A DNA stretch of 64,000 bases from a virus: positions 1 to 64,000 of the IMG/VR virus record IMGVR_UViG_3300050821_005171; one strand, written 5' to 3'. This document shows positions 20,148-61,764 of the stretch, piece by piece (positions within the stretch are counted from its first letter, which is position 1; each line of letters begins with the position of its first letter). The position numbers and the translations under genes were made by a program. The notes under the pieces are model-generated. The model saw only the letters and a list, made by a program, of their open reading frames with translations, was not told where the DNA came from and made no database searches.

Positions 20148-20699
20148 CTACATGACTCCGGCCAGGAACAACGTCCAGGCAATGTCTTCGGTACCGCTGT
20201 GCTGAAGCCGCAGAATGTTCGATGAGTTGTTGGCGACTGGCCATCCAGCCAGCCTGTTCGTCATGAAGATGTGGTCGCCGGCTCCGCAGGTTAGTTGGCA
20301 GTCGACATTCCCATTAAACGGGGCATCCCAAGCGTGCCCGGCGCTTCCGGCTCCGCCCACGAGCAGGACTGCATCCGGGTTTAGAACGAAGCCGCCCGAG
20401 CCGTTAGGGGTTCCGTTATTTTGAATGAACAGCATCTTGATCGTGGCGAAGTCAATGACGTCCTCAAAGACGTCCTGAAGCACCCCCCAGAGATTGAGGT
20501 CCGTGATCGGCGATCCGGCCGTCACGACACCTTCTCCCTGATAAGTCATGTTGGCCTGGGCCAGAACGCCACTGTTTCCCTGCGACAGCGTGCATGAGGC
20601 GCTGAGCCTCCCAGCGTTCTGCAACGTCCCGATCAGGGGAATCTTGTTGAAGTTCCACCCGATCGACAGGCCGTGCGTCACCCTGAGAGATGTCGTCAT
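20148..20699 (-). CDS. Virion structural protein
   Basis: DLNLWGVLQDVFEDVIDFATIKMLFIQN, beta-rich; first gene after the hairpin. Confidence 0.55.
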   Translation of the reverse strand: MTTSLRVTHGLSIGWNFNKIPLIGTLQNAGRLSASCTLSQGNSGVLAQANMTYQGEGVVTAGSPITDLNLWGVLQDVFEDVIDFATIKMLFIQNNGTPNGSGGFVLNPDAVLLVGGAGSAGHAWDAPFNGNVDCQLTCGAGDHIFMTNRLAGWPVANNSSNILRLQHSGTEDIAWTLFLAGVM

Positions 20700-20741
20700 G
20701 TCGCGCTAGTCCGGAAGCCTTATGCCGCAACGGTTTAGGTT

Positions 20742-20759
20742 CTGTTACGAAATCATTTC
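20742..20759 (-). promoter_or_regulatory. Motif B copy (GAAATGATTTCGTAACAG)
   Basis: Repeated oriented motif, ~50 bp upstream of start 20699. Confidence 0.7.
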
Positions 20760-20761
20760 TC

Positions 20762-20805
20762 AAAACGAAAAAAGCCGGGGCAGGAATTGATATTCCCGAC
20801 CCGGC
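20762..20805 (-). terminator. Intrinsic terminator/attenuator hairpin upstream of tail genes
   Basis: GCCGGGTCGGGAAT-ATCA-ATTCCTGCCCCGGC followed by TTTTTTCGTTTT. Confidence 0.8.
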
Positions 20806-20852
20806 CGCACTATCCGCGATGGACGTGAACCGATATCGACACTGCACAGGCG

Positions 20853-21155
20853 TCAGTCAGACGAAACCGGTTCCCCTTCAGTCCCGGTATCAACTGGGCG
20901 ATGGTTACCGCCAGCAACCATTTCCTCAAGGGCGTTCGTGAAACCCCTGAGTCGCTGGTCGCTTACCTTCCTGATCTCCTGAATTGTTCCCTTACTGACG
21001 AGCAGCGTCAATCCCACTGTTCCGTTGAAGTCCCTGATGCAGACTTCGGACAGGATTTGCTGCAATGCTGCGCGGGCCAATGCCCCGAAGTTCCGATTTG
21101 TATCGGTTCCGAGGAGGCTATCGCCAACTATGGTGCCTGGACGTGGCGGCGTCAT
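20853..21155 (-). CDS. Small DUF2292/YezD-like protein
   Basis: ILSEVCIRDFNGTVGLTLLVSKGTIQEIRKV helix plus beta-hairpin pattern. Confidence 0.55.
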   Translation of the reverse strand: MTPPRPGTIVGDSLLGTDTNRNFGALARAALQQILSEVCIRDFNGTVGLTLLVSKGTIQEIRKVSDQRLRGFTNALEEMVAGGNHRPVDTGTEGEPVSSD

Positions 21156-21423: not shown

Positions 21424-21476
21424 TTCTGGGCTCCGAATAGGTTGATGTGTAATCACAATGTGCATACACACTGTAC

Positions 21477-21950
21477 CTAATTGTTGCCCTGCTTAACAAC
21501 ATCGTTGCGGCGATTGACCTTGTAGGTCAGCATGCCCTGGTAAATCCCGTCACCTGCGTACCCTGGCGCTCGGCAGATGTGCTCACCGGTGCGGCGACAG
21601 AGCAGCGAGTACCCAGTGTTCGTATCGAACTCAAGTTGGGCATCGTCGTAGATCGACTTGAGCTGATCGATGATCAGGCCGCACTGATCCTTGGGGTCGT
21701 TGACGCCGTCCTCTTTGACGTACACGCAAATCTGGAATACGACGTCCTGGAACTCGCCAAAGTACCCGGAATACGAGCCGCTGGACCACCTACGCGAAGC
21801 TGTACTGACGGGGCTGAACACAGCGTAGGGGAATGGCGTGTTAGCCGGAGCCTCTCCGTCCCAGATGCTTCCGGCCACAATCGAGTCGAGCAGATTGTCC
21901 GTCCACAGGCCAACAATCGCCTTGTCGACCTGCGTCGATGACGACGTCAT
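21477..21950 (-). CDS. Tail completion/terminator protein (DUF3168-like)
   Basis: IWDGEAPANTPFPYAVF...FQICVY. Confidence 0.75.
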   Translation of the reverse strand: MTSSSTQVDKAIVGLWTDNLLDSIVAGSIWDGEAPANTPFPYAVFSPVSTASRRWSSGSYSGYFGEFQDVVFQICVYVKEDGVNDPKDQCGLIIDQLKSIYDDAQLEFDTNTGYSLLCRRTGEHICRAPGYAGDGIYQGMLTYKVNRRNDVVKQGNN

Positions 21951-23478: not shown

Positions 23479-23512
23479 GCGCCGGGAGCCTTTTGTAGAA
23501 ACGATTTAAGTG

Positions 23513-23530
23513 CTATTGCGAAATGATTTC
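23513..23530 (-). promoter_or_regulatory. Motif B copy (GAAATCATTTCGCAATAG)
   Basis: Intergenic; degenerate second copy at 23498-23508. Confidence 0.7.
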
Positions 23531-34279: not shown

Positions 34280-34301
34280 TTGCGAAATCGTTTCGCAATA
34301 G
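34280..34301 (+). promoter_or_regulatory. Motif B copy within palindrome TTGCGAAATCGTTTCGCAA
   Basis: 17/18 identical to the 23513 copy in transcription orientation. Confidence 0.7.
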
Positions 34302-34357
34302 AACGCAAGTATTTACACAGCAATCGGTAACAAACAACGCGAAGGGACGAAATTAGC

Positions 34358-36689: not shown

Positions 36690-36720
36690 AAACGGGCGGG
36701 AAACCGTCCGTTTTTCTTTT
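36690..36720 (+). terminator. Intrinsic terminator
   Basis: ACGGGCGG-GAAA-CCGTCCGT TTTTCTTTT. Confidence 0.8.
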
Positions 36721-36723
36721 CAC

Positions 36724-36752
36724 TTGCGTTGTGCTGACAACGTGCCTACAAT
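36724..36752 (+). promoter_or_regulatory. sigma70-like promoter TTGCGT-N17-TACAAT with motif A; probably leaderless
   Basis: GTGCTGACAACGTGC at 36731-36745; ATG 7 nt after the -10. Confidence 0.8.
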
Positions 36753-36759
36753 GCCGTGT

Positions 36760-36957
36760 ATGAACTTCCTGGTGCTCGCCAAGTGGACCGACATCGACTT
36801 CCTGCGTCACAGCGCATGGTTCCTAGTCGAGACGATGGAAGCTGCCGAGAGCAGCAAGCATAAACTGTGGATCGACGGGAACGATATCGATCAGTTCTGG
36901 GTTGTTCCTGTCAGTGGGGCCGTGGACCTGTGCAGGAAGAATGTCGAGGGCACATGA
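36760..36957 (+). CDS. Hypothetical protein
   Basis: First gene after promoter. Confidence 0.55.
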   Translation: MNFLVLAKWTDIDFLRHSAWFLVETMEAAESSKHKLWIDGNDIDQFWVVPVSGAVDLCRKNVEGT

Positions 36958-41289: not shown

Positions 41290-41307
41290 GAAATGATTTC
41301 TGAATCG
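41290..41307 (+). promoter_or_regulatory. Motif B copy (GAAATGATTTCTGAATCG)
   Basis: Intergenic, ~48 bp upstream of ATG 41348. Confidence 0.6.
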
Positions 41308-41347
41308 ACACTAAGTCTTTGCTTCATAACAACATAAGGTGACCGCG

Positions 41348-45092: not shown

Positions 45093-46598
45093 TTACGAAT
45101 TGACCAGCGTGTCGATGTACCCGAAGGACATCTCGTGCCGAGGACCGGCGTCGATGTACTGGGTGCCGCGCATCGTCGAGATGCGCTGAGCGAACTTACT
45201 CGCGTCGCTGTTGGTCACGACGAGATCGATGATCCCGGCCCGGCCGATGATCCACTCCGGGCCAACGCCGCCCAGGACGATCGTCAGTGTCGTTCCGCTG
45301 CTCTTGACGCGGTTGATCGGAATGTTGGTCGAACCGAAGACCGGCCAACCGTTCAGGCCCATGTCCACCTTGCCGCCACCAACAGTGTTGGCGGAGATGT
45401 TGAACATGAACCGTCCGTTGGTGTCGGTCCGGGTAATCAAACCGCCCCACAGGGTGTTGGTCATCGCATAGAAGAAGCCGCGATCGACCGGGGCATTCTG
45501 GTCGGCGATTGCCGCGAACAATCGTGCGGGGTCCTGGGGAGAGAACGTGTCTCCAGTGGCGCCAGTCACTCCGGCCACGACAAGGTTCGTGTTGGCGTAG
45601 TTGATCACGCCCGTGATGGCGTCGCCGCCCGAACCGTTGATCTGGTCACGGTCGGTCTTTTTGGCCATGTCGAGCGTGAATTCCATCCGTAACCAGGCTT
45701 CGACAGCAACCGACGTCGCAAACTTAATCAACTCTTCCGGGATGTCGACCAACCCTGAGTACGCCTTGGCCTGCAAGAGCAGGAAGGCAGTCTGCGGCGT
45801 GCTGGCCGTGACGGTCTGCCCCTCGGAGTAGGCTGCGATTGTGGTGGCCTGCGTCACGCGCGGGAACCGGATCGAGCCCTGGGGCGGCAGGTCGATTTCC
45901 TGGGCTCCGGCCCGAGCGAATACTTCACGCGGACGGAGCAGCTCGATCAGCTCGCCCTGACCCGGAAAGGCGACCAACGCACCACCCGAAGTCGAGATGC
46001 TGGCCGAGAGCGTCTTTTCGAGACGTTCGCTGCCGGATCGGCGTGCAATCCATGCCAACTCGGCCGGGTCGTACCCATCGGTCGAGCCATGCGACATGTC
46101 GCGGCACTCTTTGACAAGCTGCACCGGAATTCCGGGGAGCTTTGTCGACTTGTGGGTGCCAGGGTCAATGACCTCGAACTCCTGCGTCGGCATGTGATCG
46201 CAGGACAGCGGCATCGCGAACCCGTTGCTGTCCGGGATGGCCATACCTGACTCGCGGTACGCCTTGTGGAGCCGAGTGGAGAGGTCCAGTTCCGGCTTGG
46301 CGTATTCCTGCCAATCGGAGAAGTTGTTGACGCGCTTGCAGAGAGCGGTCGTCATGCGGGCCATCGAGAACGGCCGGCTGGTCATGATCGACTCGCCTGT
46401 GCGAATGCCAGGGGCACCGGTCATCCAGGGCGTCTGGACCTGTTCGGCCTTTTCGAGCCGCTGATTGATGGACTCGACTTTGGCGTCCAGCCCCTCCATG
46501 CTGTCGAGGGCCTTATTCAGCCGGGCCAATTGTGCGGTCCGGTCGGTCGCCGGGGCGGCAGGAGCGTCAACAACGGCGGTCGGATTCTGGTCGGACAT
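45093..46598 (-). CDS. Major capsid protein (HK97 fold) with N-terminal delta-like domain
   Basis: SGGALV...LIELLRP...FPRVT...YSEG...TDTNGRFMF...LNGWPV. Confidence 0.9.
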   Translation of the reverse strand: MSDQNPTAVVDAPAAPATDRTAQLARLNKALDSMEGLDAKVESINQRLEKAEQVQTPWMTGAPGIRTGESIMTSRPFSMARMTTALCKRVNNFSDWQEYAKPELDLSTRLHKAYRESGMAIPDSNGFAMPLSCDHMPTQEFEVIDPGTHKSTKLPGIPVQLVKECRDMSHGSTDGYDPAELAWIARRSGSERLEKTLSASISTSGGALVAFPGQGELIELLRPREVFARAGAQEIDLPPQGSIRFPRVTQATTIAAYSEGQTVTASTPQTAFLLLQAKAYSGLVDIPEELIKFATSVAVEAWLRMEFTLDMAKKTDRDQINGSGGDAITGVINYANTNLVVAGVTGATGDTFSPQDPARLFAAIADQNAPVDRGFFYAMTNTLWGGLITRTDTNGRFMFNISANTVGGGKVDMGLNGWPVFGSTNIPINRVKSSGTTLTIVLGGVGPEWIIGRAGIIDLVVTNSDASKFAQRISTMRGTQYIDAGPRHEMSFGYIDTLVNS

Positions 46599-46623
46599 CG
46601 CATAACCCCTTCTGGTGCTGAAC

Positions 46624-48111
46624 CTACGGGCACTCGCCGCAGGCAACTTTGAGCCGTGTGTCTACATTTTCGACACGCTCGACGACACGGTTAAAAACCT
46701 TGGCTGCTCGTTCTAATGCGGCGTCGAGCAACTCGTCGTTCTGCTCGCTGTCCCGCTTCTCCAACTCGTTATCCAGGGTTTCGAGAACGCCGCGTTCGTC
46801 GTCGTCCTTGTCGCCTGGATAATCCGGCTCTGTGTTTCGCTTCTTCTTGCCGACAGCCGGGCCTTTACCACCCTCTTCCTCTGGCTCCAGGTCGCCTTCC
46901 AGCGACTCTCCGTCTAGAGGTTTGGGGCTGCCAGCAAACCCTTTGGCCATTGCTTTGTGCATCATGGCCATGTGTTTGTGGTACTGGGCCTGCATGTTGG
47001 CCATCGCTGTTTTGTGGGCCTTCTCCAAATCACCGAACAAATGCTCGGGATTGTCGAAGCCGCCACCAGCCACATCGTGTCGAACCTGCCCGGCCGGAGC
47101 GTTGGGAACTTCTCCCGGACGCCGCGTGTCGTGCGGGTTCTGCCTCGGCACATCCCGGGACGGGTCCACGTCCTTGTTGGTGTGCGTGGCATACAGCGAA
47201 CGGTATCCAGAAGCCCCAGGAGGGATGTCGCGGTCGGGGTCAACGTCCTTGTTGATTCCGCCGGGAGCAGGCTTCTTGGGCTTCTTAAGGCCAGGATTGT
47301 CGGAGGTCTCTGGCTTGGCAGCAGGAGAAGCCCCAGGCGACAGATAATGCGGCATCTTGCCGTCCGGCCCCGGCTTCGTGTTTGCAGTTCCTGTCGGGGC
47401 ATCCTCAGGGTGCTCGTCGGTGCCAACCGGGAGCTTATCGGCCCCAGGCTTGGCCCCCACGGGCATGTCTTCACCTTCCGCGCCGAGTTGCGGTGCGTTT
47501 CCTCCGGCACTGTGCGCATCGATCACATGGTCGGCAATTCCAGCCAGTGCCTCTTGGACTTCGGGCGGGAGATTCTGGAACCAGTTCGCATTGGACACCG
47601 GAGACGGGCCTGTGGCCGGGGCACCATCCCCATCGGTGCCAGGATCACTTGTCAGCCCTGAGCCTTGCTCGGCGACCGAAGGAATGTCACCGACTTCGAG
47701 TCCAGCCGCATCCGCAAGCGCAGTAACGTGTTGCAGTGCGTCTTCCGGTAGGTCGTCGATCATGTCCATCAGCGACATGACGTGAGCTTCGGGGGTCATC
47801 TCTGGGGACTGGGCGAGCGTTCCGGCCACGGGAGAATGACCCTGGGGCGGCTTGCCGCGAGGGATGTTCGCCTGGGGGACCGCCTTGTTGCGGTAGACCA
47901 TCCGCTTGGACAGTGCGTCGAGGCTCTTACGAAGCTCTTGGCGGGCTGCCGAGCCCTCTTCGGTGTCTCGCTTCACGAGCACGAAGCGGGCCTCTGGGAC
48001 GGCCGGCTTGTCGACGATCGAGATGTCATCGACAGTCACTCCGGACAGGCGGCGACGAAGTTTAACCGGCATTCCTGCCGTGACTCCGGGTGCCATGTTC
48101 GGGTTGGCCAT
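46624..48111 (-). CDS. Scaffold-like protein with N-terminal protease-type strand
   Basis: LSGVTVDDISIVDKPAVPEARFVLVKR then disordered acidic/Pro-rich body. Confidence 0.7.
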   Translation of the reverse strand: MANPNMAPGVTAGMPVKLRRRLSGVTVDDISIVDKPAVPEARFVLVKRDTEEGSAARQELRKSLDALSKRMVYRNKAVPQANIPRGKPPQGHSPVAGTLAQSPEMTPEAHVMSLMDMIDDLPEDALQHVTALADAAGLEVGDIPSVAEQGSGLTSDPGTDGDGAPATGPSPVSNANWFQNLPPEVQEALAGIADHVIDAHSAGGNAPQLGAEGEDMPVGAKPGADKLPVGTDEHPEDAPTGTANTKPGPDGKMPHYLSPGASPAAKPETSDNPGLKKPKKPAPGGINKDVDPDRDIPPGASGYRSLYATHTNKDVDPSRDVPRQNPHDTRRPGEVPNAPAGQVRHDVAGGGFDNPEHLFGDLEKAHKTAMANMQAQYHKHMAMMHKAMAKGFAGSPKPLDGESLEGDLEPEEEGGKGPAVGKKKRNTEPDYPGDKDDDERGVLETLDNELEKRDSEQNDELLDAALERAAKVFNRVVERVENVDTRLKVACGECP

Positions 48112-48122
48112 GCTTGGTCCCT

Positions 48123-48169
48123 AAAACGAAAAAAGCCGCACTGGATAATTGGTAATCCAGAGCGGCTTT
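48123..48169 (-). terminator. Intrinsic terminator/attenuator hairpin upstream of scaffold-capsid genes
   Basis: AAAGCCGCTCTGGAT-TACCAATT-ATCCAGTGCGGCTTTTTTCGTTTT. Confidence 0.8.
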
Positions 48170-48200
48170 AACGCTACCGCAGCGAAGAAGAATTCAGATT

Positions 48201-48416
48201 TTAGCCGAGTTGATCCTTATCGATCGTTACTCGGACGTTGCCGGCCTTTCCGCCGTTGATCGGAACCCGCACAGCAACAGCTCCGCGATGTCCCATTTTC
48301 ACAAATTCAACGATGGCTTCCGTGATTGCCTTGCGAGCCCTGGCTATCACCGCCTCGTTGTGCGAATCCACTTCATCATCGCGCAGGCAAGAAACCTGTT
48401 GGCTCACAAAATTCAC
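48201..48416 (-). CDS. Small DUF2292/YezD-like protein
   Basis: AIVEFVKMGHRGAVAVRVPINGGKAGNVRV; same layout as 20853..21155. Confidence 0.5.
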   Translation of the reverse strand: MNFVSQQVSCLRDDEVDSHNEAVIARARKAITEAIVEFVKMGHRGAVAVRVPINGGKAGNVRVTIDKDQLG

Positions 48417-48462: not shown

Positions 48463-48816
48463 TCAGTCTCGAAGTTCAACCGGAGATTGTTCATACAACG
48501 ATTCGAGCCTGTCGTTTGCCCGCTCGATAATGGCTGCGGCCTGTGGTGTCAGGTCCTCTGGATAGCAGTCGACATGCCACACCCCATAGTCCCAAAACTT
48601 GCCGCCGAAGCCCAGATTTCCCTCAAATCGGTACTCAGTGCAGTCCTCGGCGACATTCAGGCAGAATGACTCGCGATCGTGCTCCTGAGCATCGCACTCC
48701 TCGACCAGGACGTTGTAAATTTCGTTGGCCCAGGCTCTGGGAATGTTCATTTTTATTTGGTCGCGGTCGTCTGGAAGCGTTGGAATGTAAAGACTTGAGA
48801 GCGACTCCGAAATCAT
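48463..48816 (-). CDS. Hypothetical phage protein (true start may be 48750)
   Basis: EYRFEGNLGFGGKFW...VDCYPED. Confidence 0.6.
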   Translation of the reverse strand: MISESLSSLYIPTLPDDRDQIKMNIPRAWANEIYNVLVEECDAQEHDRESFCLNVAEDCTEYRFEGNLGFGGKFWDYGVWHVDCYPEDLTPQAAAIIERANDRLESLYEQSPVELRD

Positions 48817-48822
48817 TTCGGA
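48806..48822. promoter_or_regulatory. Motif B copy in palindrome TCCGAAATCATTTCGGA
   Basis: 17-bp inverted repeat just after the protease stop. Confidence 0.65.
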
Positions 48823-49698
48823 CTACACAGCAGGACTGGCGAACCCATCTGCTCCGATCGAAAAACCACGGAATTTACCAGCCAGGATGGCTTGCCTGAC
48901 CTCTGGATCATAGACCCTAAACGCAGCGAGCCACGTTCCTTCAGAGATAGGCACGCCGTTCACGACGTAATTTGGCGACCTGACGATATAACTCTCGACG
49001 AGCGGGCAGGATCGCTTGGAGAGCACAACTTTGTGCATGACGCCTGCGCGCTGACAGTCCTCGACGTAGGCGTGTGCGGCCAGTTCGATCTCACCCGCAT
49101 CGATCATGTCACCCTGCTTATCAACACGGTCCGGAACGAGAATCGGGCCGAGAATGTACGTGTAGTCTGGCGTGCTGTCCACCTTAGTGAACTCTGACGT
49201 CATCTCGGCGTGTGCCGCAACCTGTCCCGAGCCAGATGCCGCAAGGGCCGGTGCTGCTTCAGGTGTTTCTGTTGCCACTTCGGTGTCCTCCGATTCTGAA
49301 TCCGGTAGTTCGGCTGGCACCTGTGCCAAGCCAGGGTCGATAGTGATCTGCCCATCAGGCCCCACGCACACCCAGGTAGACCCGGTCCCCCAGTCGTTCG
49401 GCGCCGCCGTGCCGACGCTGATCCTGTCCGGGTGGATGCCGAGCGCCTGGGCGACGCCCTGTTTCCAAGGATAGTCAAACTGAGCAGCATCACGATCCGG
49501 CTTGAGTACCACGCGGGCAATTTGCTGGGCACGATCGTAAAATAACTGTCCCTGGTTGCTCGGTCCGCAGATGACATTGATGCTCGCCAAAAGAGTGCGG
49601 GCTACGTCTTCGGAGTGAGACTTTCGCAGGATCGCTTTGTGGAGCTTGCGACGCACCTTGCGTTTCTGTCGATTGGCTTTGCGAATCTGATCCTGCAT
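48823..49698 (-). CDS. XkdF-like prohead serine protease
   Basis: PILVPDRVDKQGD...GVMH...VESYI...GTWL...FRGFSIG. Confidence 0.85.
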   Translation of the reverse strand: MQDQIRKANRQKRKVRRKLHKAILRKSHSEDVARTLLASINVICGPSNQGQLFYDRAQQIARVVLKPDRDAAQFDYPWKQGVAQALGIHPDRISVGTAAPNDWGTGSTWVCVGPDGQITIDPGLAQVPAELPDSESEDTEVATETPEAAPALAASGSGQVAAHAEMTSEFTKVDSTPDYTYILGPILVPDRVDKQGDMIDAGEIELAAHAYVEDCQRAGVMHKVVLSKRSCPLVESYIVRSPNYVVNGVPISEGTWLAAFRVYDPEVRQAILAGKFRGFSIGADGFASPAV

Positions 49699-49701
49699 TG
49701 T

Positions 49702-52329
49702 TTACTCCAGCACCGAGGTCACTGTACACCGACAGTTCACCCGATTCTCAGGTGACAAGCCGGGGTCACCCGGAAATCTAGCTCGCTCACCATTACTGAG
49801 AATGAACAGGCGACCTTCTCCGACTTGGGTGCCGTCCTCGTCGAGCACCACCCAATGGCCACCACGCTGCACGATCATTTGGCCAGCGACTTCTAGGTGC
49901 ATCTCGCGAGTGTTTCTATCTCGGATTGCCACCCACTGACGGCCTTGAACTATGTTGCGAGCGATGAGGTCCTCCTGAACGCTCCACTGCCCTCCCGCAA
50001 GCGCTGCTGTGATTTCCGTTCTCGCAATTCTCTCGGCTCGCACCTCGTTGAATAGGTTCTCCGAGTCCTCTGAGATATAGGTGGCAGTGTCCTCTGGCGT
50101 CCAGCCTTCCTCGATCGCACGCAACAGGATGTCACGCAGTCTCTGTCGCGTCGTGCCTGTTACGTTTGACCGCCAATACTGAGCGTTAAAGTCCTGGGCG
50201 AGCGTGTGCCTAATGCGCTTCACCATAGACGGGGGTATCTCCATAAACCCCTTGATCCGTCGCGATGATTTCGGCTCAGCAACCTCAGCTTTCTCAAATC
50301 TGCTGACGTGTCTCAGTTCAAGCTGAGCGCCAATGATTGCCGCATCGAACATCGGTTCCACAGCGGCGTCGAGCAGCAGCGCCTCTGATCGGCCCGGAGG
50401 TAACAGCACCCAAGCACTGTCAGGATTCACGGCCTTGGTGAGTCTCACGGTGCCGTTATCACCAGCAGGGACTAGCGATTTTGTGATACCGGAGAACGTC
50501 TCATACCGACTAATCACTTCGGACTTCTGCGTCTCCAGCGCTCCCAGTAGTGCCTCAGTGAATGGAGCCACCTGGGACTCGTGGGCGGCCTCCCACTCTC
50601 GCACCAACCGGTCCACCTGCTCTGACTTGAACAGCCGGCTCCGCTTCTTGGGCTCGAACATGGGATGTCTAGGCTTGTTTGGATCGCGAGCGTATCGAGG
50701 TGGAGACTCGACTGGAACTTCTTCTTGATCTCCGCCGTAGCCAAGATCACCCCCCTTCGTCGAGCTAACGTCCCGCTCGCCAAATGCGATCAGGTCGTCT
50801 AGCGACTGGCGCTCAGGACCGAGGCGAACCTTCTCCTGCCGTCCAAACAGTGGCGGCTTGCCGTTGCTGGGCGCGTGGCCGTTTCCATTGGCCGAGCCGT
50901 TCTGGCCATCCTGCCCTGGGGCCTTGCCGCCGAACGTAGTTGGCTTGGATGGCGGGGTATGGTTCTGTGACGCACCATCCGGGCTCGGCTGTCCCTCTCC
51001 CGGTTTGGCAGCAGCCACGATCCCGGGTTGCGGTTCGCCTTCGTCGTTGCCCCACTCGGCCATCTCGGAGCTTTTGGGGACGATCGGGCGCTTGCCACCA
51101 CGGCGGAACGGTTTCTTCTGGAACAGTAACTCGCGAACCTCGTTCTGATCGAGGGCTGCCCCTTTGATGCCCAGGTCGACCGCTTTGTGGATCAGTTCGA
51201 TGTCGCTTGGGACCACTGGAGAGAAGTATGCGAAGCAGTCGCCCGCAGGTTCAAATTCGCGCACAAGGCTGCGGGTAATGTGGGCTGCGTTGTGCTTCAG
51301 GCGGGGGTTGATTGTGTTTTCTGCCCATGCCTGAATAGCTGATTCCATATTGCTCCGGTTCGCATCGGCCACAAGGCCCACGACAGCTTTTGGCACTCCA
51401 AAAGTTGCTAATGTCATGGTTAACGTCGTATCGAGTGAGGCGCGAAAATCCATTTCTTTCACGCTTGACTGTTGCATCATCGGCTTCAAACCAGAGTGTG
51501 TAATCATCGGCCGCCCGCTATGTTCGACGAGCGTGTGCTGATTGATGATCTGGTTGTAAACCTGCTTCACCTGTGGCTCTGTCAGTGTCTTATCAGTGCT
51601 GAAAATCTGCCCAGGTGGTGCATAGTTCTGGAACTGATTCCGCAGCCGATCGTAGATCGTCATCTCGATGTCGGTCGTGTTGCCGCAGTGCCACAACGTC
51701 GGCGAGCCGTAGAACCTGCCGTTGCCGTACCAATCCAGGTTCGGCTCCATGAACTCGACGATCTCACTGGCAGGCAGGATTACCGGACGCTCAGTGTGCC
51801 ACAGATTCCTGATCTCGTATGCCTCGACATACTGCGTTCGGCTGGGAATCACCCGCACGAACTGCGAGGGCATTGGCCACACTTCTTTGGTGGTGCCGAA
51901 CAAATTACGGCCCTTCCACCAATAGGCGTTGCCCGTGAGCATCTTCCAGCCCTCGGTGTAGAACCACAGGTCCCACTCCGTGAACCTGGGATTCACGTTG
52001 AAGAAGAGCTGGCACAGTGGGTGATTGGAGGGCAATGGCTCGACGACCGTACCCGACTTCTTCGGGATGCGGCGGAGCATCTTGATCTCTTGCATCGCCA
52101 TCTTGCGGGCAATGGCCCCGGAGGCGATGAACACCGAGTTGCGGTTGGCTCGCAGGAATGCGTTGCGGTCGATCAGCCACTCGGCGCGGGTGTGCCGGTG
52201 GACAGGGCCGACCATGATCTCGGCGAAGTCGGCTGTGGATTTTTCCACGCGGACAGGGCGAGCGTTCCGGCCGCTGAGGGTTTCGGCGCGGCTGAATGCA
52301 TGATCTAGTGTGGCGCTAAGCGTCGTCAT
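49702..52329 (-). CDS. Portal protein fused to a Mu gpF-like head morphogenesis domain
   Basis: GNAYW...FGVPKAVVG...ANRSN; C-terminal RIARTE...FPGDP...NCRC. Confidence 0.9.
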   Translation of the reverse strand: MTTLSATLDHAFSRAETLSGRNARPVRVEKSTADFAEIMVGPVHRHTRAEWLIDRNAFLRANRNSVFIASGAIARKMAMQEIKMLRRIPKKSGTVVEPLPSNHPLCQLFFNVNPRFTEWDLWFYTEGWKMLTGNAYWWKGRNLFGTTKEVWPMPSQFVRVIPSRTQYVEAYEIRNLWHTERPVILPASEIVEFMEPNLDWYGNGRFYGSPTLWHCGNTTDIEMTIYDRLRNQFQNYAPPGQIFSTDKTLTEPQVKQVYNQIINQHTLVEHSGRPMITHSGLKPMMQQSSVKEMDFRASLDTTLTMTLATFGVPKAVVGLVADANRSNMESAIQAWAENTINPRLKHNAAHITRSLVREFEPAGDCFAYFSPVVPSDIELIHKAVDLGIKGAALDQNEVRELLFQKKPFRRGGKRPIVPKSSEMAEWGNDEGEPQPGIVAAAKPGEGQPSPDGASQNHTPPSKPTTFGGKAPGQDGQNGSANGNGHAPSNGKPPLFGRQEKVRLGPERQSLDDLIAFGERDVSSTKGGDLGYGGDQEEVPVESPPRYARDPNKPRHPMFEPKKRSRLFKSEQVDRLVREWEAAHESQVAPFTEALLGALETQKSEVISRYETFSGITKSLVPAGDNGTVRLTKAVNPDSAWVLLPPGRSEALLLDAAVEPMFDAAIIGAQLELRHVSRFEKAEVAEPKSSRRIKGFMEIPPSMVKRIRHTLAQDFNAQYWRSNVTGTTRQRLRDILLRAIEEGWTPEDTATYISEDSENLFNEVRAERIARTEITAALAGGQWSVQEDLIARNIVQGRQWVAIRDRNTREMHLEVAGQMIVQRGGHWVVLDEDGTQVGEGRLFILSNGERARFPGDPGLSPENRVNCRCTVTSVLE

Positions 52330-55993: not shown

Positions 55994-56743
55994 ATGTCTG
56001 GAAATCAGTCTACAGGTCGCGCCCGAAGAGAACCACTCGTAAAAGTTGGCGACCGATATGAACGGCTCGTTGTGACGTCCGTATCGCACATGAAAACGAG
56101 TAGCGGGTGGAGATGGTTTGCATCAAGCATTTGTGATTGCGGGAATGCAAATACATCACGCGACGATTCTTTAGTTAGTGGTAAGGTCCGTAGTTGCGGA
56201 TGCCTACAGCGAGAATCTGCCGGAGCGATAAATCGCAGCCACATGCTCTCGAACAGCCCGACATATTCAACTTGGGCCAACATGCTAACGCGATGCACAA
56301 ACCCCAAGTTTGAAGACTGGGACCGATACGGCGGACGGGGAATTAGGGTGTGTCAGGCTTGGTTTTCATTCGAGGCATTCTTGGCAGACATGGGCGAGCG
56401 CCCGTCTCCGTCCCACAGCCTCGATCGCTATCCCGATCAGAACGGCAACTACGAACCGGGAAACTGCCGCTGGGCTACTGGAAAAGAACAATGCCGAAAT
56501 CGGCGTGACAACAATCTCATCACCTTTAACGGAGAAACGAAAACTGCCGCAGAATGGTCCGAAATCACCGGAATCACGCCATCTACACTAAGGGCACGAA
56601 CCAGGGCCGGATGGCCTGCCGATAAGTGCCTCACGACTCCAGTCCAGAGTGCGGGATCACGGAGCAGCGGAAAAGGGACCCCGCTATCTGTCTCCGAAAT
56701 GATTTCGCAACAGCACCCAACTCAAGCACCGGCAACAAATTAA
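55994..56743 (+). CDS. HNH-type homing endonuclease
   Basis: CDCGN...SCGC...YGGRGIRVC..W..F..F..DMGERP...SLDR...YEPGNCRWAT. Confidence 0.9.
   Translation: MSGNQSTGRARREPLVKVGDRYERLVVTSVSHMKTSSGWRWFASSICDCGNANTSRDDSLVSGKVRSCGCLQRESAGAINRSHMLSNSPTYSTWANMLTRCTNPKFEDWDRYGGRGIRVCQAWFSFEAFLADMGERPSPSHSLDRYPDQNGNYEPGNCRWATGKEQCRNRRDNNLITFNGETKTAAEWSEITGITPSTLRARTRAGWPADKCLTTPVQSAGSRSSGKGTPLSVSEMISQQHPTQAPATN
56696..56713 (+). promoter_or_regulatory. Motif B copy (GAAATGATTTCGCAACAG)
   Basis: ~52 bp upstream of ATG 56758. Confidence 0.65.
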
Positions 56744-61178: not shown

Positions 61179-61638
61179 TAGCAGTGAGTTCCGTCTGTGT
61201 CGTGTACGGAATCGCCTCAATCCTAACTTCGACTCTGGCCGGCTCTCCCCACGATTTTCCTAGGGTCTCAGCAAAGATTTGGGAATCGTCTCGCCAGATA
61301 ACCCCAGTCAATGCGTCTTCAACCCCCCGCGCCAATTTGAGAACATCGGGACGTTGAACATGGAAAAGAGGAGCCGATCCGCGATAGTCGCCATTGCTCT
61401 TTAGGTGCGATTTTGGACGCGGTAAGTAGAATTCCAGATACAGTCGTACTGGCCCATCAATCAGACTCTCACACGTAAACGCCTCACGCGCAGCCGACGC
61501 GACAGCATTCTTCCAGTCCCGTGAGTTGGGATTCGCATCCGACACGGCGACGCCGATCTTCCCATCACGTTTCTTGAATGGGAACGCTCGCTTGCTACCT
61601 GCTGGCTGCGGCTTGCCATACACGACGAATTGGATCAC
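61165..61638 (-). CDS. rusA: RusA Holliday junction resolvase
   Basis: GKPQPAGSK...RPDVLKLARGVEDALTGVIWRDDSQI. Confidence 0.9.
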   Translation of the reverse strand: MIQFVVYGKPQPAGSKRAFPFKKRDGKIGVAVSDANPNSRDWKNAVASAAREAFTCESLIDGPVRLYLEFYLPRPKSHLKSNGDYRGSAPLFHVQRPDVLKLARGVEDALTGVIWRDDSQIFAETLGKSWGEPARVEVRIEAIPYTTQTELTANAQR

Positions 61639-61652
61639 GTTTCAGGTGCTCC

Positions 61653-61693
61653 AAAAGAAAAGGGGCCGGTGCCAACCACGCAGCACCGGCCCC
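61653..61693 (-). terminator. Intrinsic terminator
   Basis: GGGGCCGGTGC...GCACCGGCCCC then TTTTCTTTT. Confidence 0.75.
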
Positions 61694-61696
61694 GAA

Positions 61697-61764
61697 TCCC
61701 AAAACCACTTGCATCAAGGCCCTAGTCTACTCCCAAAACCACTTGCATCAAGGCCCTAGTCTAC
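61697..61764. repeat. Perfect 34-bp tandem duplication
   Basis: TCCCAAAACCACTTGCATCAAGGCCCTAGTCTAC twice. Confidence 0.95.

Follow-up and report, generated by a model that had tools for sequence, protein, structure and literature searches.

In the hut operon of Bacillus subtilis, a terminator located between hutP and hutH is opened by HutP (PMC2425495). In this arrangement, as in the similar bglG/t2 layout, the promoter-proximal open reading frame (ORF) encodes the regulator, an intrinsic terminator comes next, and the controlled genes lie shortly after it and are reached by read-through (PMC2425495). The pR'-6S RNA-tR' region of phage lambda with its Q protein, and also N/nut and the put RNAs of HK022, share with the locus described below a strong terminator before late or structural genes which is to be overridden. 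Here we describe a module of a small ORF and a Rho-independent terminator that is present twice in the structural region of a phage, once on the tail side (copy 1, ORF P0001 and terminator T1) and once on the head side (copy 2, ORF P0002 and terminator T2). The analyzed DNA, called the window, comprises the first 64 kb of the 78.7-kb IMG/VR record IMGVR_UViG_3300050821_005171, which is about 76% complete. Comparison with related phages confirmed that the ORF plus its terminator is a real, repeated, and evolutionarily conserved unit, and its position suggests that it may act as a gate before virion genes.

T1, T2, and all other features of the two modules are located on the minus strand (Table 1). 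An original prediction made from the DNA letters had placed the same architecture at positions 20762-21155 and 48123-48416, and this was borne out, since an ORF, a hairpin, and a U-tract are present at both sites. The hairpins had been expected within about 50 nt of the ORFs, and the spacers between stop codon and hairpin were indeed 47 nt for P0001 and T1 and 34 nt for P0002 and T2. The gene order on the head side is portal-MuF fusion, XkdF protease, P0006, P0002, T2, scaffold-like protein, and capsid protein, with the scaffold ATG (48111) only 11 nt beyond the U-tract of T2. On the tail side, the gp17-like tail-completion gene is followed by P0003, P0001, T1, and P0004, whose ATG (20699) is located 62 nt beyond the U-tract of T1. 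The proposed position directly before a structural gene is therefore correct for T2, whereas T1 is separated from P0004 by a promoter-like motif and P0004 is not a proven tail protein.

The hairpin energies are -21.3 kcal/mol for T1 and -19.0 kcal/mol for T2, and the tail of each reads U6-CG-U4. Together with its flanks, T1 folds with -31 kcal/mol (z -3.2). Both elements show what is expected of an intrinsic terminator, i.e., a stable GC-rich hairpin followed by a U run downstream of a gene on the same strand, and we infer that they are working terminators. A genome-wide scan for strong hairpin-plus-T-tract terminators returned about eight in the record, with T1 and T2 within the top five and T1 at rank 3 by strength. 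A simple consensus scanner missed both because of the internal 1x1 mismatch that each contains. No Rfam family matched anywhere in the window.

The conservation of the module was analyzed by way of the capsid protein, for which 77 homologues were obtained; for 30 of these, the surrounding locus was retrieved from collections of viruses, genomes, and metagenomes (locus numbers with L in the following). The two closest capsid homologues (P0010 and P0011, 77 and 66% identical), both absent from IMG/VR, lie outside the compared loci. The head-side module was found in ten non-redundant phages (this phage, L119, L120, L121, L122, L123, L126, L135, L138, and L139), whose major capsid proteins are 50-55% identical. 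The conserved order in these ten phages is XkdF protease, P0002 homologue, a spacer of 23-67 nt, a strong hairpin with 6-8 T, and the scaffold ATG. The small ORF has 58-78 aa (184 aa in L138) and the hairpin is separated from the scaffold ATG by 12-27 nt, a range that also holds for the next start codon past the hairpin in 13 loci overall. In the relatives, the N-terminus of the scaffold, a basic stretch ending with RRLKN, is conserved right from the ATG onward, which argues that the start codons are correct and that no promoter fits between hairpin and gene. The tail-side module was present in three lineages only. In L133/L136 and in L149, a second contig of a metagenome-assembled genome (MAG) of the Pirellulaceae, a gp17-like tail-completion gene is followed by an ORF of 75-77 aa, a strong terminator, and, 18 nt further on, the ATG of a P0004 homologue.

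The linkage of the ORF family with a terminator in relatives was one of the checks set beforehand, and the co-occurrence was seen. Among the compared loci there was no case of a small ORF without a terminator. Neither element is present at the head junction of L129 (53% capsid identity), L124, L145, and L148, where the protease gene is directly followed by the scaffold gene, while L130 and L143 have a terminator at this junction without an ORF of the family. On the tail side, more distant P0004 homologues with neither small ORF nor terminator were found in L143, L176, L167-171, in Streptomyces prophages, and in phage Hiyaa. Treated as a plain 2x2 table, the co-occurrence of ORF and terminator gives p ~0.008, a value that is descriptive only, as the loci are phylogenetically related. 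Five relatives have a terminator directly after the capsid gene (L120:7425, L126:7432, L129:4728, L131:4886, and L121:4821), so that scaffold and capsid gene there form a unit between two terminators; in this phage, no terminator was detected behind the capsid gene.

Direct homologue searches with the small ORFs (5.8 billion proteins by word index; 1.84 billion representatives by full phmmer search) matched only the ORFs themselves, and their homologues were obtained via synteny in the relatives gathered with the capsid protein. Comparison of the small ORFs of L121 and L122 revealed 15, 10, and 32 substitutions at the first, second, and third codon position, respectively, and of 31 identical residues, 19 are encoded by different codons, which indicates that the small ORFs are real coding genes. 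P0001 and P0002 could not be aligned by BLASTP, and a Smith-Waterman shuffle test gave p ~0.03, barely above noise. The relationship became apparent with profiles: the head-side family (A2) and the tail-side family (A3) are reciprocal best profile matches, the best non-seed matches of the head-side profile among 5,858 six-frame ORFs were three tail-module ORFs (L133, L136, and P0001; E 0.02-0.06), and hhalign aligned A2 with A3 over the helix, the first strand, and the turn (83.9% probability, E 7.7e-6). Judged by these profile comparisons, the two families are distant paralogues.

The original prediction had described the proteins as DUF2292-like with a helix and a beta-hairpin. The structural part stood, and so did the assignment to one distant superfamily. 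The single-sequence AlphaFold (AF2) model of P0002 contains a helix (residues 18-40) and a beta-hairpin (45-53 and 57-65) at a predicted local distance difference test score (pLDDT) of 67; the single-sequence model of P0001 was poor (pLDDT 47). An isoelectric point of 9-11 was calculated for 11 of 14 family members. A Foldseek search with the P0002 model gave no significant PDB neighbor; the top fold rows were helix-plus-hairpin DNA binders of the MADS-box type (E 0.35-0.6), which were not counted as evidence. Membership in Pfam DUF2292 (PF10055), on the other hand, was not supported, as no match at E ≤ 10 was obtained for P0001, P0002, and P0008 or anywhere in the whole record, and the Pfam model matched none of the 14 family members even at E ≤ 1. 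Alignment by hhalign with 16 genuine DUF2292 proteins of Planctomycetota gave 62% probability for the tail-side family (E 7.6e-5 over 23 columns) and 3.7% for the head-side family, and a search with a protein language model returned one cluster with 24% DUF2292 (score 0.77). The proteins resemble the YezD-like DUF2292 family in size and in a helix that ends with an aromatic residue and Gly and leads into a beta-hairpin whose central turn contains Gly. "DUF2292-like" thus appears to be a fair description of the pattern for proteins that, by these searches, are not members of the Pfam family. Of 301 Planctomycetota genomes sampled, 15 have genuine DUF2292 genes (L150-L166), and the Pirellulaceae MAG with the related phage contigs is one of them; unlike the phage modules, these cellular genes have no terminators abutting the next gene. 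No functional literature on DUF2292 was found.

Taken together, these results led us to favor, with a probability of about 0.4, the view that the terminator is a gate whose leakiness is set in trans, the adjacent small protein being, by analogy with hutP-terminator-hutH, the best candidate for the factor. Each copy consists of a small ORF for a mostly basic protein with a predicted helix and beta-hairpin, a spacer of 25-70 nt, and a strong Rho-independent terminator just ahead of the first gene of a major virion block. The terminator would close the upstream unit, which comprises portal, protease, and small ORF on the head side and connector/tail-completion gene and small ORF on the tail side. 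The scaffold-capsid genes, and the P0004-type gene in relatives, would be reached only by polymerases that pass the terminator. As the scaffold ATG is so close to the hairpin that there is no space for a promoter, read-through is apparently needed, and we infer that the scaffold and capsid genes, like the P0004-type gene in relatives, are expressed in this way. The leakiness of the gate would be set late in infection, and the protein encoded just before it would be the prime candidate for the factor responsible, although a function of this protein as regulator of the terminator is speculative. In this phage, copy 1 would mainly end the upstream unit, because a promoter-like motif precedes P0004, while T2 still lies 11 nt from the scaffold ATG. 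A coupling by ribosome occlusion was considered and rejected, since the stop codons are 23-67 nt (once about 190 nt) away from the hairpin, too far for masking.

A more specific version of the gate model is, in our view, rather doubtful. It holds that the helix-plus-beta-hairpin proteins are a new family of phage factors that act on their own downstream terminator via the RNA or the polymerase, with one paralogue timing the scaffold-capsid genes and the other the tail-side genes. If true, the module would be a self-contained timer, a "protein plus its own terminator", that has been duplicated within the structural region.

Several observations weigh against the gate model. Comparison of the small proteins with Pfam, PHROG, and PDB sequences revealed no known RNA-binding or antiterminator family. 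In the spacers of the modules, no shared k-mer was enriched (p ~0.1), and an apparent GCGG..UAG was not significant. An alternative antiterminator pairing of the 5' arm of the terminator was not above that of shuffled upstream sequence (z -1.7 to +0.8). Furthermore, P0001 and P0002 are too diverged for BLASTP, whereas their terminators are 80% identical. Diverged paralogues facing almost the same terminator are the opposite of what is predicted for specific protein-RNA pairs and, like the lack of a conserved RNA feature, speak against an RNA binder with sequence specificity as the regulator.

The identity of T1 and T2 across hairpin and tail (35 of 44 positions) is the highest of 190 terminator pairs from this phage and its relatives (mean 56%, standard deviation 7%, 99th percentile 75%). 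In structural register, pairs 1-4 of the lower stem are identical and pair 5 is swapped from G-C to C-G. The upper stems had been claimed to differ, but four of their six pairs are identical and the other two show compensatory double changes. The original prediction had also emphasized an apical TAYCAATT and a common 16-nt 3' end. Both are shared within the genome: seven of the eight bases of the loop region are common to T1 and T2, and the record as a whole contains the 16-mer CGGCTTTTTTCGTTTT in exactly two copies, both inside the window, with ~0.05 copies expected even if two mismatches are allowed. The 8-mer alone, however, is not significant (four matches in the window versus 1.45 expected); it forms the whole loop of T2, but in T1 it extends from a closing pair across the 4-nt loop into the 3' arm and is thus half base-paired. 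The 16-mer had to be given up as a special element, because at least 114 unrelated IMG/VR contigs contain it as well, always as a single copy, and an unrelated hairpin precedes it in 86 of 113 cases, which identifies it as a recurrent, generic terminator tail. The composite of loop and tail matched no other IMG/VR contig, the window's own record possibly being outside that scan.

Conservation of the loop in homologues was another of the checks set beforehand, and it failed. Stems and loops are wholly different among the 13 homologous modules, and a nhmmer profile of T1 and T2 had no match in 413 kb of related loci (best E 5.9). This complete difference also holds for L121 and L122, although about 60% of the residues of their small proteins are identical. 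In the Pirellulaceae MAG, the only other genome in which both modules were seen (on two contigs), the two terminators are 54% alike. The likeness of T1 and T2 is therefore special to this phage, and the common tail and TAYCAATT probably reflect a within-genome duplication or gene conversion of the terminator and not a recognition element of the family.

Further points against the gate model come from the surroundings of the terminators. An oriented 30-nt motif, designated motif B (GAAATSATTTC-GYAAYAGMAC-YYAAR..), has seven copies in the record, all of them at a distance of 40-65 nt before a start codon, and none in the fetched relatives. The copy at 20728-20759 begins 2 nt past the U-tract of T1 and ends about 30 nt before the ATG of P0004. 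A sigma-70-family protein is encoded just outside the window on the minus strand (record 64432-64635; L187:1501-1704; Sigma70_r2, E 5e-17, in a frame of 292 aa), and for this reason motif B may be the promoter recognized by it. In such a promoter, GAAAT could represent the -35 region and yAAgTC the -10 region, with a spacing of 16 nt. In that case, T1 would close one unit and P0004 would have its own promoter, whereas T2 would be located inside a unit formed by motif B, P0006, P0002, T2, scaffold, and capsid. With a promoter-like motif after T1, this terminator need not be read through in this phage, and yet P0001 and T1 have been retained although P0004 has such a motif of its own. At 61661 and 67726, further strong terminators closely precede the next gene without an ORF of the small family. 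The first of them (61620-61700) shows that gene-abutting terminators are not confined to the two small-ORF modules, and leaky terminators between co-directional genes may simply be the style of this phage.

According to a rival explanation, T1 and T2 are ordinary, constitutively leaky terminators at operon boundaries, alike by copying, which end or stabilize the upstream messages and let a constant share of the polymerases pass into the structural genes. The small protein would have an unrelated job, e.g., as assembly chaperone or minor virion component for the protein made next, and would only travel along with the junction. This is the strongest of the competing explanations, although we consider it somewhat doubtful. 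It agrees with the generic tail, with the lack of a conserved loop, spacer motif, or alternative fold, with the promoter-like motif directly after T1, with the other terminators abutting genes in this genome, and with the terminators after the capsid gene in five relatives, a common phage arrangement. A strong stop before the genes of the most abundant virion proteins would, however, reduce their message in relation to that of portal and protease, contrary to what the stoichiometry requires. Moreover, ordinary leakiness leaves unexplained why paralogous small ORFs precede the terminator in two modules and why ORF and terminator are present or absent jointly.

A role at the RNA level appears unlikely. 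The hairpin could serve as a stabilizing 5' stem after processing, combined with a U-rich ribosome landing site for genes without Shine-Dalgarno sequence, or as a protective 3' stem of the upstream message. The tightly kept distance between hairpin and ATG in the 13 loci would fit, as would the ATGs of L119 and L126, which lie 5-6 nt past the U-run and lack a sequence of the Shine-Dalgarno type. A compact genome would, however, give such tight spacing as well, and all features of intrinsic terminators are present, including 6-8 consecutive U directly after the GC stem. No processing site can be inferred, and the linked small ORF is left without explanation.

It is very unlikely that the modules are moron-like cassettes, i.e., independent inserts of promoter, gene, and terminator unrelated to structural-gene expression. 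The extra ORFs P0006 and P0003 and the promoter-like motifs that precede the units in this phage (motif B at 48819; near 21449, a variant of motif A) could be viewed in this way, but the unit is found at the same two junctions across phages of about 50% capsid identity and not sporadically, and in relatives, where the small ORF abuts or overlaps the gene upstream, a promoter of its own would not fit. Least likely of all is the nut/boxB-like switch of the original prediction, with the apical TAYCAATT loop as recognition element of a phage antiterminator. This region is similar in T1 and T2, but loop and hairpin sequence are conserved in none of about 12 homologous modules, the profile search of the related loci was negative, the place of the 8-mer within the structure is not the same in the two hairpins, the composite with the tail was confined to this phage within the limit of the contig scan given above, and no Rfam family matched.

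The positions of the genes and signals discussed are listed in Table 1. For P0001, the gene caller chose a start 18 nt upstream, resulting in 106 aa. P0003, which shares 38 nt with the start of P0001, is missing from this junction in relatives, where the small ORF directly follows the tail-completion gene. P0006 is likewise absent from the relatives inspected, in which the small ORF begins at or overlaps the protease stop codon. The P0004 family (phrog_22694) is widespread, with members in Planctomycetota MAGs, Streptomyces prophages, Hiyaa, and Microcystis, Micromonospora, and Bradyrhizobium phages (L182:6001-6510 among them). It is annotated as hypothetical everywhere and its neighbors vary, e.g., the capsid gene in Hiyaa and the tail-completion gene here. 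An assignment of P0004 as tail tube protein was rejected as unsupported, since gene 9 of Streptomyces phage Hiyaa, which encodes a homologue annotated as "hypothetical protein", adjoins the capsid region, being located two genes after the capsid gene.

Table 1. Positions of the two modules, their neighboring genes, and further regulatory signals in the window.
Feature	Position	Strand	Characteristics and basis
T1 hairpin	20805-20774	-	6 bp, U.C mismatch, 7 bp, loop AUCA; RNA fold
T1 U-tract	20773-20762	-	TTTTTTCGTTTT
P0001, tail-side small ORF, 100 aa	21155-20853	-	Translation; aligns with same-position ORFs in L133/L136 and L149
P0003, ORF of 101 aa	21118-21423	-	Between tail-completion gene and P0001; possible signal peptide at N-terminus
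Tail completion protein, gp17-like	21477-21950	-	PF11367, E 5.9e-6; same family before small ORF in L136 and L149
P0004, conserved virion-module protein	20148-20699	-	phrog_22694; homologues in L136, L149, L143, L176, and Streptomyces phage Hiyaa (gene 9)
T2 hairpin	48166-48135	-	5 bp, U.U mismatch, 6 bp, loop UACCAAUU; RNA fold
T2 U-tract	48134-48123	-	TTTTTTCGTTTT, same as that of T1
P0002, head-side small ORF, 71 aa	48416-48201	-	GTG start; homologues at same position in 9 further non-redundant loci
Scaffold-like protein, 495 aa	46624-48111	-	Low complexity; assigned from position and weak PHROG match
HK97-fold major capsid protein	45093-46646	-	PF05065, E 3.4e-18; phrog_617
P0006, extra ORF of 95 aa	48463-48750	-	Between protease and P0002; motif B upstream at 48819-48788
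XkdF-type prohead protease	48823-49698	-	PF14550, E 8e-22; same family before small ORF in relatives
Portal-MuF fusion	49702-52329	-	Head side, before XkdF protease
Motif B copies, promoter-like	20728-20759(-), 23499-23530(-), 34284-34315(+), 41290-41321(+), 48788-48819(-), 56696-56727(+), record 76534(+)		
Strong terminator	61620-61700	-	12-bp GC stem, TTTTCTTTT; 23 nt before possible GTG start at 61638
Terminator (36711), then sigma-70-like promoter	36690-36770	+	Spacer motif GTGCTGACAACGTGC

The junction at 36690-36770 represents a textbook terminator-promoter junction, unlike T2; the ATG about 7 nt past its -10 box suggests a leaderless message. At about 66100-66350 of the record, two matches of the terminator scan resemble the T-arm and acceptor ends of tRNAs (GGTTCGAGTCC... 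and GGTTCAATTCC...), and tRNA genes are probably located there. With respect to the host, one of the fetched capsid loci lies in the MAG of the Pirellulaceae (Planctomycetota), which suggests Planctomycetota as host clade; this phage and about a dozen relatives are probably phages of Planctomycetota.

For the question of how such phages order the expression of their late genes, the module provides a concrete candidate for a new terminator-control factor, and the candidate parts are small (protein ~70 aa, RNA ~45 nt). Should the protein have no such role, a recurrent design remains in which the capsid genes depend on terminator read-through, and in either case a new small-protein family of phage structural modules has been defined. 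We know of no earlier description of the protein family or the module, and none was found in the searches made.

The layout known from the RNA-binding antiterminators HutP, BglG/LicT, and ANTAR proteins was found in the ten head-side and three tail-side lineages, the agreement being one of layout only. The small phage proteins show no sequence or fold match to HutP, CAT, or PRD proteins; they are half as large as HutP and give no indication of a ligand logic. In contrast to the HutP and BglG systems, no UAG repeat or RAT-like motif and no alternative pairing were detected in the phage modules. The module also differs from hut by its location in a phage structural operon and by its presence in two copies with paralogous proteins. 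Compared to the lambda gate, a Q-family gene was not found, as searches of the incomplete record for lambda-Q-type genes (PF06530, PF03589) gave none at E ≤ 0.1, and the "leader" is a conserved protein-coding gene instead of a short RNA. The terminator stands within the order of head and tail genes rather than at the start of one long late operon, and the phage modules contain no conserved boxB-like loop or put-like structure as in the lambda N/nut and HK022 put systems. With ordinary Rho-independent terminators of phages, T1 and T2 share the GC-rich hairpin and U-tract on the coding strand at the end of an ORF and the generic tail common to unrelated phages. They differ from them in that their position is conserved just upstream of the scaffold-capsid genes without room for a promoter, and in that they are tied, at two junctions, to a family of paralogous small proteins.

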